64,000 nucleotides of DNA from Octopus vulgaris (Eukaryota), in NCBI GenBank assembly GCA_951406725.2, contig OX597836.1, positions 10,044,001-10,108,000 of the forward strand, read 5' to 3'. The notes beneath the pieces were generated by a model that was not told the DNA's origin, searched no databases, and was given only the letters and a program-made list of their open reading frames with translations. The position numbers and the translations under genes are program-made. Position 1 is the stretch's first letter, and the number at the start of each line of letters is the position of its first letter. This document shows, in pieces, positions 26,101-41,100 of the stretch.

Positions 26101-29100
26101 AGCAGTACTTGGAAGGAAGGTGTGTAGTGTGTGATCATTGCATTGACCACGACAGAGAAAGTTGTCATGGTGACACCTGCTCAGTGGCCTGCACAAAGTT
26201 GCAGAAAGTGTATGGAGAGGAGTGTAGAGTTGCACACAAATATACATGTGGCTCAAACGTTTCCAAGAGAGCTGAAAAAATGTTGGTATTGTTGAAAGTT
26301 CTGGGAGACCTGCAGCCAGCAGAACTGAGAAAAACATTGCAGATGTGTGTGCAGCTGTGAGGGGAAATCGTTGAATCACCAACCATGAGTTATCAGAGGA
26401 TTTACGGGTGAGTTACAGTTCAGTTCAGTCCTTTATCACTGAAGATTTGGGTATGAGATGCATATCTGCCAAGTTTGTGCCAAAACTGCTTTCAACTGAC
26501 CAAAAAGACACTCGGGTCTCAGTTGTACAAGATCTCCTTGATTGTGTTGAGAACAGTGAAAACTTTTTGTAAACTTTGTGTAGGCCTCTCAGCTGGTATT
26601 GCCAAACATTTGGCAAAATTTGATGCAGATTCTCTGCTCAACTTTCTCTGTCATAGTCAATGCGACGATCACACGCTACACACCTTCCTTCCAAGCACTG
26701 CCGTAAACAGAAGAAGTGGGCTAGACTGTTAAAACTTAGTGCGCATGCACAGTAGAGTTCAAGGTAAATCTGTGCCAAGTGGCTTTACTCTGTGTGCTTT
26801 ACCTTCATTACTATGGCAACAGTTGAGGTACTTATTGATAATGCCCTGCATATATATGTATATATATATATATATATATATACACACACATATATATACA
26901 CACCGTTCCACCCATGCTAGAGTGGAAGAAGGGATGTTAAAAACTGATGATGAAGATGATGTATGCGTGTGTGTGTATGCATATATTTATATATGTATGT
27001 ATGCATACATATATATGTGTCTGTATATATTTGTGTGTGTATATATATATATATATATATATTTGTGTGTGTATATATATATATATATATATATGAGAAT
27101 AAATATGTGTATATATGTGTGTGTATGTGTGTGCGACAATTATGACAATGGAAATTTCACACTGAAGTGATAAACTTGATCCATTACAAGGTTTAATGTC
27201 ACAAGATGACCCTTCAGTGTGTTTAGCAGAATCCACTCCCTTATAAGCACCTGGGTGGGATCACCAGTTTGAATACAGTTTTGTAAAAGGGTCATAAATA
27301 TTGCCCTTTTCTCCTGATTAAAAGGTGAAAAATAATATTTACATTAGCTTTGCAAATGTACAGTGAATATTTTCAAAGGTTTTCCTTACATGGGCGACAA
27401 GGTTCGTGCATGCATTCTTCCTCTGCAGTAATACTTCCACGGCATTTACTGCCCTTTGGTAAGCAGCTGCGAAATCTCCTTCGGTGGCCTGAGTCACATG
27501 TAGTTGAGCAACTGGACCACTCACTCCATGATGTCCAGCTGGTACGGGTCTTGTTGAGTGATTCTAAAACATGAATTCATATTGGATGTGCTAATTAATA
27601 TTCATTAGAAAGGCCACTTTTGCAGCTAAGAGCTAATCTATTCACAGCTCACCAGCTTTTTACGCTATCATTTGCTGTTTAATTAGTATTATGCTACATC
27701 AGTTTCACTGATTTTCGATCTGGTATTTGGTGCTTGGTTAGCATCTACTGATGATCCATGAAATCATGTGATACAGTAGTGCCATCTGCTGGTTGAGGAA
27801 AAGTTTGTCAGCTAATATAGCCTGTACTTTTTAGCATTTGTTGTCTATATACGAATATTTTTTGGGACATTCACTGTAGTCTAAGGCCTTCTAAGCAGCA
27901 CATCCAATTCAGGTTAGATGGTTAATACATACATACATACATACATACATACATTCATTAATATATATAAAATTAATAGAATGAGATAAAAGAATCCAAG
28001 GCTGTGAAAGATTTCAGAACATTTATAAAGAGAATTTAACCATTTTCTTGCACTGTCTCTGATGAAGGGATATATAAAATATCCTGGAAACAGCTGTAAG
28101 ACTTTCCTTTTATAAATGTTCTGAAATCTTTCACAGCCTTGGTTTTTTTTGTCTCATTCTGTTAATTTTTTTATATATACACATGCTGATACATGACCTA
28201 CGTTGGACTCCTCATCTATATAATCATCGAACCTGGAGCTTAACTATAGTCTGTTCATAGCTCTTACTCGGCATTACCTGACACCTTTGGGTCTTCCTGA
28301 CACCATTACCTCTCATAACCTATAATATATACATATATATACTCTTTTGTGTCTGGGGAGAGTCATTTTCTTTTTGTGCCTTATAATTTAACACACTCAC
28401 CAGTAAAATTTCCACTTATTTCTTATTTTTATTTTCCTAAAATTTTCATTGCGTCTTGCAACCTTTTCAATAGTCTTGAGAGTCAAGACTGTTGAAAGGT
28501 TGCAAGAATTTGAACTCAGAACGTAGTGGCAGATGAAATACTGCTGAGCATTTCACCAGGTGTGCTAACGTTTCTGCCAGCTCACCGCTGTAATTATAAC
28601 TGTTAGTATTTTTAAAAGACCAACACAGTTAAAACTTTAATGTCCAGTAACAAAATCACCTGTTAATTGTTTACAGGCATTGTCAGTTACTTCTTCACGC
28701 AGCCTGAGAAACACATTTTCATTCATCACCTCAACCTGTCATCTCCTCAGACCAGCCAACAAACCCCCTCGCAACAACAGCTAAAGTCTATCATGATTAC
28801 AACGGGAATTTGATACTGAAGCGATAAACTTAAATCCATCACCGGATTTAATGCCTCATGATGACCTATCTGTGCTTTTAGCAGACTCCAATCTGTTACA
28901 AGAACCTGCGTGAAATCTCCAGTTTCAATATATATTTCTTTACTACCCACAAGGGGCTAAACACAGAGGAGACAAACAACGACAGACAAACGGATTAAGT
29001 CGATTACATCGACCCCAGTGCATAACTGGTACTTAATTTATCGACCCCGGAAGGATTGAAAGGCAAAGTCGACCTCGGCGGAATTTGAACTCGGAACGTA

Positions 29101-38100: not shown

Positions 38101-41100
38101 GGAGCTATTCAGGACCCCCTTGTGCATGTAATATATAAATTAACAGAATGAGATAAAGAATCCAAGGCTTTGAAAGATTTCAGAACATTTATAAAGAGAA
38201 TTTAACCATTTTCTTGCACTGTCTCTGATGAAGGGATATATAAAATATCCTGGAAACAGCTGTAAGACCTTCTATTTATAAATGCTCTGAAATCTTTCAT
38301 AGCTTTGGTTTTTTTATCTCATTCTGTTAATTTTTTTATATATACACATGCTGATACATGACCTACGTTGGACTACTCATTCGCATAATCACCAAACCTG
38401 GAGCTTAACTATAGTCTGTCCATAGCACTTGCTCAGCATTACCTGACACCTTTGAGTCTTCTTGACACCATTACCTCTGATAACTTATATATATATATAT
38501 ATATATATATATATATATATATGTATATATATTTATATAGTCAATCCGAACATGAACAAGCAAGAAAAAACAACAACGCGAGGACGTGGAATAAGTACAG
38601 TGTTATTGGACGCTCAGGGATGGAAAGAAAAGACAGAGGATTTCATGTTTTGAGCGAAGCTCTTCATCAGAAATATAGAAAAAGTCCAAAGAAGGGAAGA
38701 CGGAGGAAGAAAATCGCTAATGATACACACACGATATACATATTCTCTTTTACTCTTTTACTTGTTTCAGTCATTTGACTGTGGCCATGCTGGAGCACTG
38801 CCTTTAGTTGAGCAAATCGACCCCAGGACTTATTCTTTGTAAGCCTAGTACTTACTCTCTCGGTCTCATTTGCTGAACCGCTAAGTTACAAAGACGTAAA
38901 CACACCAGCATATAAAGCTGAAGTTGTCTGTGTATGGCAGGTTTGGTAGCCTTCAACTAACACTACCTCCTCTGAGACCCTGCGGTGCAAGTTGACCAAA
39001 ATTGAGAGTATGATAGAAGAAGGCTTGCTCTTCATTCCGTTGAAGAAAAAATTCAAATCAGACCATGTTAACACCAAAAATTATTTACATCAAAAAGGTG
39101 CTTTTTTTATCCCTATTTTTTACGATTTTTTGACTGCTGTGTTGCCATTTTTCAGTGTATTTCAACCAGAAAAATGTTCACTTAAAGAGAATAACAAGCT
39201 ACATAATGCAAAATTTTTACTTTTCAAAAATTCCAATTCTAAACTCTCAAAACAAACCCGAGCAACGCCGGGTTATACTGCTAGTGTATATATATATATA
39301 TATATATATATATACACCACACGCTCACACACACATTTATTAAGTTTGATTAAATCTTGAAGTATACACAACAATATCTAATATCATATTATAATAACTC
39401 TTGTCACTCTGTTAGTGAGTGAGTCTGTGCCGTATGCTCTGGTCGTCTGCCAATGCTTTTGCTTGGATCAAGTTACCACATGAATTAGTTGTAAAGACCC
39501 ATCAATCCAGAACATCTACAGAGAGCCATTTAATGAACATTAAATGAACATTAAGGAAAATTTGATTATCTAAGTTATTGCATTTCAAATTCATTAGTTT
39601 GCTCGTTAATCTAGCTAATGTTTATATATTGGTAGCTTGGTGTTTATAATGGATTACTCTGATACATAAGAATTTCTAGTTTTAGCATATCTGTATCATA
39701 TATTCCTGTACTATATATTCATATTTACTTTACAATTATAAATGGAATATGTATAAGCGAATTTATATATCTACATCATTTACATTTGATGGATATTTGT
39801 CCTCATCTTGTTTGTTGTTAACACAACGTTTCGGCTGATATACCCTCCAGCCTTCATCAGGTGTCTTGGGAAAATTTTGAACCTGGGTTCTCATTCCTAA
39901 GGTATTTTTTGATGTTATTATTATTATTTTTTTTTCCTTCTTTCTTCAAATTTTTTATTTCTCGCTGAGTGTTTTCCATACACCTAGGGCAGCGAAGCTC
40001 CTTGTATGCCTTCCCAGATTACACACGCGAATTCAGAGGTAAAATATGTATTTAAAAAAATTGATAAATAAATAAATTCATGAATGGATGTTGTTTTCAC
40101 AGCGATAATGCTCTTCTCAGTACATGAGTCGTTCCAGTTAACACGATTTTTTTGCACTTCCTGAAGGGATGGTAAGCCTGGTATCATTTCCAAATAGGTT
40201 TCAGTGCCTTTTTTCATCATTCTTAGAGATCCTACAATCACTGGTACTGTAGTTGCCTTGAGATGCCACATTTTTTCGATTTCTCTTAGCAAGTCTTTAT
40301 ATTTACTAATCTTGTCAAATTCTTTCGCCGTTATATTTTGATTGCAAGGAATACTCATGTCAATTATTATTATTATCGTCATCGTCGTTGTCGTAGTCGT
40401 CGTCGTCATCGTCATCATCGTCATCATCATCATCATCATCATCATCATCTTCATCATCATCATCATCATCATTATTATTATTCAGGTCACAGCCTGGAAT
40501 CGAACTTAGAATCTTGGGGTTAGTAGTCTGCGCTCTTAAACACTACACCATATACGCGAAACACCAGACATATATATATATATATATATATATATATATA
40601 TATATATAGGTGCAGGAGTGGCTGTGTGGTAAGAAGCTTGCTTCCCAACCACATGGTTCCAGGTTCAGTTCCACTGCGTAGCACCTTAGGCAAGTGTCTT
40701 CCAATATAGCCTCAGGCTGACCAAAGCCTTGTGGGTGGATTTGGTAGACGTGGAAACTATATATATATATGTATATATGTGTGTATGTTTGTGTGTCTGT
40801 GTTTGTCCCCCAACAACCAATGCTGGTGTGTTTACGTCCCCGTAACTTAGTGATTCGGCAAAAGAGACCGATAGAATAAGTACTAGGCTTACAAAGAATA
40901 AGTCCTGGGGGTCGATTTCCTTGACTAAAGGCGGTGCTCCAGCATGGCCGCAGTCAAATGACTGAAACAAGTAAAAGAGAGTAAGAGTATAGATATATTT
41001 GTCTTATTGTGTGTACATAATTCCTCATCTCTTAAAGCATAGAACTGAATTTACATACCTATTCATATAAGAAAAATCATACACATATATATATCAATAT

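Follow-up and report, generated by a model that had tools for sequence, protein, structure and literature searches.

A hammerhead-bearing foldback repeat in introns of an Octopus vulgaris TSP1 gene, probably derived from a Penelope-like element

Results

Two copies of a foldback repeat

A stretch of 64,000 nucleotides of Octopus vulgaris DNA (contig OX597836.1; hereafter the window, numbered from its first letter) carries two copies of a short repeat in which a type I hammerhead motif is enclosed between long inverted arms. This element is probably a short non-autonomous retroelement that arose from the terminal repeat (pLTR) of a Penelope-like element (PLE) and was copied as a unit from uncleaved RNA, and it is probably an uncatalogued yet largely ordinary relative of a known group.

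The initial annotation of this DNA had described two elements of about 350 bp with inverted arms of about 60 bp around an identical hammerhead core. Both elements are present on the + strand, with limits refined by alignment to those given in Table 1, and 27 of the 360 alignment columns differ between them (92.5% identity); their GC content is 33-34%. The arms were also confirmed, but they are longer than proposed, since 27963-28034 and 28104-28178 form 70 pairs in copy 1 and the arms of copy 2 form 66, and they do not lie at the ends of the element. Rather, the unit consists of a hairpin of about 215 bp followed by a tail-piece of 143 bp. As these 143 bp beyond the right arm are common to both copies, the inverted repeats are not terminal.

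When the whole element was folded as RNA, z scores of -13.6 for copy 1 and -11.4 for copy 2 were obtained, and none of 100 shuffles of either copy folded as well. The 3' 143 nt are unstructured (z = -0.52 and +0.20 in the two copies). Thus, the description of the element as MITE-like (miniature inverted-repeat transposable element) was not sustained, given arms that are not terminal and a 3' part without structure. With 4 G-U pairs between the arms of copy 1 and 2 between those of copy 2, the numbers are too low to judge strand bias.

Differences between the copies are distributed as 4/71 in the left arm, none in the spacer, none in the hammerhead (0/48), 8/77 in the right arm and 15/143 in the 3' part, so the identical core of the initial annotation stands at 48/48 nt. 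The two solo copies lie 10.2 kb apart and are not in tandem within the window, where BLASTN with word size 7 and both copies as query revealed neither a third copy nor a copy of the hairpin on its own. As had been proposed, the element is non-coding: no long or shared open frame was found in its six frames, and protein searches yielded no homologue for two reading frames of copy 1. TA-rich sequence adjoins both ends of both copies.

Table 1. Positions of the element, its parts and other features of the window
Feature	Position	Strand	Remarks
Element, copy 1	27963..28322	+	360 bp, 34% GC; BLASTN and pairwise alignment
Left arm, copy 1	27963..28033	+	Inverted copy of 28104-28179; outer end runs into TA-rich tract
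Spacer, copy 1	28034..28054	+	21 nt; 0/21 differences between copies
Type I hammerhead, copy 1	28055..28102	+	Descriptor scan and numbering
Helix I, copy 1	28055-58 with 28099-102	+	4 bp; core from 28059
Helix II, copy 1	28067-85	+	7 bp; extra A 28066 before, extra G 28086 after
GAAA, copy 1	28087-90	+	
Palindrome, copy 1	28090-97	+	Followed by A17; cut predicted between 28098 and 28099
Right arm, copy 1	28104..28179	+	Direct copy; ends in internal T7-(TA)n run
3' part, copy 1	28180..28322	+	143 bp outside hairpin, common to both copies, non-coding; TA-rich sequence beyond
Element, copy 2	38131..38487	+	357 bp; layout and inner junction as copy 1; ends in long (TA)n
Type I hammerhead, copy 2	38221..38268	+	Same as copy 1 at 48/48 positions
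Second hammerhead family	39786-39926; 57765-57866	-; +	About 160 bp; 91% identity over 102 nt
Third hammerhead, single, intact	44101-44145	+	Motif 44105; CUGAAGA core, G-C closure of helix II, 8-nt palindrome
Fourth hammerhead repeat, degenerate	38540-38745	-	Motif 38670; 3' end meets 3' end of copy 2 tail-to-tail at one (TA)n tract
Host TSP1 exon frame adjoining copy 1	27376..27576	-	Pfam TSP_1, E 2e-09; context only
Host TSP1 exon frame, far end of intron of copy 2	43231..43548	-	Pfam TSP_1, E 1.3e-08; context only
Host gene	12699-58574; 7613-7810; 60120-61940	-	At least 18 single-domain TSP1 exons

The hammerhead motif

The motif reads, in order, helix I, CUGAUGA, an extra A, helix II, an extra G, GAAA, an 8-nt palindrome and A17. 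The extra A is A28066, unpaired between positions 9 and 10.1, and the palindrome spanning positions 15.1 to 16.1 is ACAGCUGU, with a duplex energy of -11.1 kcal/mol. The assignment as a minimal type I hammerhead with palindromic helix III was upheld in its build, with helices of 4 and 7 bp, but not in the G10.1-C11.1 pair. This pair is absent from both copies, in which helix II is closed by G28067-U28085 and the extra G28086 precedes G12; alternatively, the closure may be read as an A-G opposition. The two other intact hammerheads of the window retain a G-C closure of helix II.

A structural descriptor, composed after the motif had been seen, gave four matches in the window, two of them the element copies, compared to a single match in total over 300 block-shuffled windows. 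The Rfam search that the initial annotation had proposed did not recover the motif: no family matched anywhere in the window at gathering score, and with E up to 10 over copy 1 no hammerhead family was among 13 matches. An identity as microRNA (best E 2.7e-06) was discarded, as all such matches lie far below gathering score and reflect the long hairpin only. When prokaryotic genomes were searched with a degenerate core pattern, two matches were returned, both without helix II and judged to be due to chance, and plasmids and phages yielded no match.

Part of the spacer (28035-28053, + strand) resembles a 3' splice region, with TTAAC and a pyrimidine tract, but ends in AC instead of AG. In Penelope of Drosophila virilis one intron ends at helix I (PMC4209133). 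The spacer is possibly a relic of a splice region, or the resemblance may be due to chance.

The two insertions are independent

Both copies are intronic and in the same orientation. A Pfam scan of 299 of the 352 filtered reading frames of the window placed all 18 TSP_1 hits on the - strand, in agreement with the antisense position with respect to the host gene that had been proposed.

The initial annotation had allowed that the copies were carried by local duplication. The flanks of copies 1 and 2 are unrelated, with only interspersed repeats in common, and the exons that adjoin the two copies, compared in windows of about 190 nt, share 67.0-71.5% identity, whereas the non-coding element reaches 92.5%. 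Carriage by exon duplication is therefore rejected. In addition, a 70-150-bp segment of the intron that holds copy 1 recurs in four further introns within the exon array, and the element is present in none of the four. No empty paralogous site was readable, as the paralogous introns align over 78 and about 150 bp only, away from the insertion. These sequence comparisons show that the two insertions are independent.

Origin of the element

The origin that we consider probable would have taken four steps. Integration of a PLE would have left a 5'-truncated pLTR (28034-28322) with the hammerhead inside, joined at its 5' end to a partial copy of itself in inverted orientation. The foldback unit would then have been inherited whole, a step that these two copies do bear out. 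Both left arms carry G and T where both right arms have A (in the sense of the left arm), and the inner junction is the same in both copies, including the point, 28034, at which the direct copy is truncated at its 5' side. Arm-specific bases and a common junction indicate that the foldback is older than both insertions.

In the third step, read-through RNA may have been re-copied in trans by the reverse transcriptase (RT)/GIY-YIG protein of an autonomous PLE into TA-rich intronic sites, at two places whose independence is established above. Finally, the template RNA would have been uncleaved, since copying begins at the 3' end, from which a cut at 28098 would part the left arm and the core. 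The hammerhead would be either a weak ribozyme that depends on a dimer or a protein, as other PLE motifs do, or a debilitated passenger.

Several results weigh against this origin. No RT or GIY-YIG protein was found by Pfam among the frames scanned, so that the link to PLEs rests on architecture and not on homology. The overhang of the direct copy beyond the inverted one measures 143 bp, far more than the 30-40-bp tail of PLEs, as judged from two copies only. The TA-rich flanks, which have only TA-run words in common, show no readable target-site duplication. In addition, one indel in an A/T run groups the arms within copies, both being longer in copy 1, which fits arms that were remade or converted inside each copy better than plain inheritance; this indel may reflect slippage or conversion.

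The inner end of the right arm, at 28104, lies 5 nt past the predicted cut. This distance is the one unusual feature of the element, but it is a single coincidence noticed post hoc. It could be read as the trace of a cleavage in the cell, the inverted arm being a fossil copied from the 5' end of cut RNA. The hairpin would then have become a mobile family of its own, with a working non-canonical hammerhead (A-G or G-U closure) at the tip of a 70-bp stem, off as a monomer and on only as a dimer or with a partner protein. We regard this as unlikely. If true, the activity of PLE ribozymes in vivo could be read from genomic sequence.

A solo monomer of a non-LTR retrozyme, derived from a 360-nt circular RNA cut from tandem transcripts and reverse-transcribed from the TA-rich junction, with arrays elsewhere, is likewise rather unlikely. 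The size (357-360 bp) and the GC content fall within the range of 150-450 bp and below 50% GC given for retrozymes, those of mussels being 350-390 bp (PMC7229834). Dispersed monomers are known, retrozymes derive from pLTRs (bioRxiv 10.64898/2026.07.22.740005), and the core is conserved. Copy 1 carries the word TAATATATA at either end and copy 2 at its left end; this could represent a terminal redundancy, but the word is of low complexity. Neither copy is in tandem in the window, and the 3' 143 nt are no more structured than shuffles, with 41-52% of positions paired in a circular fold. Also, helices of 4 and 7 bp are those of PLE minimal motifs and not those of the canonical retrozyme motif, which has 6 bp in helix I, 4 bp in helix II and contacts between loops 1 and 2, and a match to an Rfam hammerhead is lacking.

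The indel that co-varies within copies would also fit separate truncated insertions from an autonomous PLE, in which each insertion remade the arm through priming on both strands of the target, with the 5' end of the RNA fixed by the ribozyme cut, producing a recurrent junction. The short distance from the inner end of the arm to the cut agrees with this, as does the outer end at an internal T7-(TA)n run, which could anneal to a TA target; moreover, the PLE protein of the anole nicks and extends both strands (PMC11167929). However, independent events should differ, and here two substitutions and the exact junction at 28034 are common to both copies, making this explanation quite improbable.

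A foldback DNA transposon of the MITE type, about 215 bp long, which had picked up a hammerhead and moves by cut-and-paste into TA sites, would account for a near-perfect inverted repeat of 66-70 bp bounded by TA runs, and for the strong DNA hairpin of the + strand (-55 to -61 kcal/mol). It is very improbable: the 143 bp past the right arm are common to both copies whereas the left flanks are not, meaning that the inverted repeats do not bound the mobile unit, and the hairpin alone was found nowhere in the window. A single insertion doubled by tandem duplication of the host TSP1 exons would explain the common orientation of the copies in a gene built from duplicated exons, but is hardly credible in view of the unrelated flanks, the diverged exons and the four related introns without the element.

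Predicted activity and conservation of the ribozyme

The state of the hammerhead was approached through nearest-neighbour energies, in which flanks were left unpaired and tertiary contacts ignored for the dimer. The active dimer of the isolated 48-nt motif is predicted to lie 5.3 kcal/mol below two monomers, in line with the dimer preference suggested in the initial annotation. With the spacer included, the active dimer was disfavoured by 10.3 kcal/mol, and with the arms by 13.1 kcal/mol; the active monomer was disfavoured by 12-13 kcal/mol. The active fold is disfavoured in context because the 3' half of the spacer (28046-28056) is predicted to pair with helix III and the cleavage strand in an 11-pair helix, with a pair probability of about 1. 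In a post hoc test, 14 of 5000 shuffled spacers paired equally well.

That the hammerhead is a debilitated passenger is countered by several results. The penalties of the other two intact hammerheads, with 25-nt flanks, were +7.8 and +11.5 kcal/mol compared to +10.3 kcal/mol here, so the folding penalty is not special. The core shows no differences over its 48 positions (p = 0.013, GC-stratified permutation), the longest identical run reaches 98 nt (p = 0.004, same test), and the identity between copies stops at the final base of helix I. The expectation that the core should be better conserved than its flanks was thus borne out, albeit weakly and on two copies only. For two copies separated by 10 kb, a gene-conversion tract and selection explain this identity equally well.

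A designed auto-inhibitory switch is not claimed, since similar penalties in context are found for the two other intact hammerheads.

Overall, it is uncertain whether the ribozyme is active: the motif lacks the G10.1-C11.1 pair and the cleavage strand is predicted to lie in an alternative helix, but conservation is higher in the core than in the flanks. In our judgement, cleavage in some dimer or protein-assisted setting has about an even chance, and efficient cleavage of the full-length monomer is improbable.

Other hammerheads, repeats and genes in the window

Three unrelated hammerhead repeats of PLE type were found besides the element, which makes four families in 64 kb (Table 1). In the second family, the motif at 39860 (- strand) is intact, has a 4-nt palindrome and 5 bp in helix I, and lies in sense orientation with respect to the host gene; its sister at 57831 (+ strand) is broken directly after the core by an inserted block of simple repeats. 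None of the four other hammerhead sites of the window is surrounded by inverted arms.

The 39860 hammerhead repeat is located in the (AAT)n tail of a decayed coding fragment (39987-40358, - strand). This fragment gave no hit in Pfam or in protein searches; in the ESM Atlas it falls among mollusc clusters, with scores of 0.95-0.96. We take it to resemble the C-terminus of a long interspersed nuclear element with a restriction-like endonuclease, such as Dong/R4. Immediately to the left of copy 2 lies a short repeat with imperfect terminal inverted repeats (37920-38125), presumably similar to a mariner-type MITE.

The window is rich in microsatellites. Within the host gene, the TSP1 exons near 22080, 23815, 25630 and 27366 are recent duplicates, and the one near 27366 shares 94-96% identity with the remaining three. 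The same gene may also include an EGF-like exon and a 607-codon frame for which protein searches gave no homologue. A frame at 2433-2813 (+ strand) holds the end of a PhyH (phytanoyl-CoA dioxygenase) domain (E 3.4e-07) and probably forms the final exon of a neighbouring gene in convergent orientation.

Discussion

As most likely read, the element carries little weight: hammerheads of this sort are common in the genome, and it merely adds a further repeat derived from a pLTR. PLEs make up 6.83% of the Octopus vulgaris genome, with 190 families (PMC13282606). The weight would be larger if PLE inversion breakpoints across the genome proved to be concentrated at the cut sites of hammerheads, as this would bear on what the PLE ribozyme does in transposition. 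The element is also of use for repeat annotation, as it is liable to be mislabelled as a MITE or as a microRNA-like hairpin, and Rfam misses the motif.

Within the host pre-mRNA the hammerhead is antisense and cannot form, whereas the 70-bp hairpin forms on either strand. Adenosine-to-inosine (A-to-I) editing is heavy in cephalopods, and it is plausible that the intronic hairpin serves as a substrate for such editing on the host transcript.

Neither core string was matched in open-access full text, a scope that leaves repeat libraries aside, and the core string is absent from the supplements of two papers. In the same open-access literature, nothing was found that joins hammerhead ribozyme, MITE and foldback, and no title on octopus and hammerhead ribozyme concerned this repeat. 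The suggestion that the element is possibly undescribed may thus hold for the family; it does not hold for the kind, as solo hammerhead repeats and inverted 5' segments are standard in PLEs (PMC8557442, PMC3846280, PMC4209133).

Comparison with known systems

The closest resemblance is to the minimal hammerheads of PLEs. As described by Cervera and de la Pena (PMC4209133), these number thousands, mainly as single motifs, and cleave weakly and as dimers only; helix I has 4-5 bp and helix II 7-8 bp, an unpaired base lies 5' of helix II, helix III is palindromic and the G10.1-C11.1 pair is highly conserved. The octopus motif shares with them the type I topology, the full core, a 4-bp helix I, a 7-bp helix II, the unpaired base after A9, a short palindromic helix III and the occurrence mainly as dispersed single motifs. 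It differs in lacking the G10.1-C11.1 pair and an attached PLE open reading frame.

An inverted, 5'-truncated copy beside the 5' end is typical of PLE insertions (Craig 2021, PMC8557442; Arkhipova 2013, PMC3846280), in which inverted pLTRs and junction palindromes are also described, and pLTRs alone are enough for mobilisation in trans (PMC3846280). In the same way, the octopus element has an inverted partial copy, shorter than the direct copy, placed head-to-head at its 5' end, and is found at TA-rich sites; a preference for (TA)n is listed for two Octopus PLE families of the Naiad type. PLEs insert into AT-rich or microsatellite targets, with target-site duplications that vary or are absent. 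In contrast to PLE insertions, the octopus inversion is short, encloses the ribozyme and begins 5 nt past the predicted cut; it has been inherited by at least two insertions, and the overhang of 143 bp takes the place of a tail of 30-40 bp. For the PLE of the anole, AT-rich targeting and extension of both strands are reported, with unprocessed RNA as the main substrate of insertion (Frangieh et al., PMC11167929). Its ribozyme cleaves only with the protein of the element, and in that study RNA-seq reads were not found at the cut site.

Like non-LTR retrozymes (PMC7229834; bioRxiv 10.64898/2026.07.22.740005), the octopus element is non-coding, AT-rich, about 350 bp in length and related to pLTRs, with one type I hammerhead per unit, and solo copies of retrozymes are known. 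Unlike them, its copies in the window are not in tandem, its fold is one inverted repeat of 70 bp and not that of a whole unit, and its helices are of the minimal type.

MITEs and foldback DNA elements are short and non-coding, with a long inverted repeat; MITEs have terminal inverted repeats at both ends of the mobile unit and a fixed target-site duplication. The octopus element is similar to them in being short and non-coding, in its long inverted repeat and in the TA at the hairpin boundaries, but its inverted repeats are not terminal and it carries a ribozyme of retroelement type.

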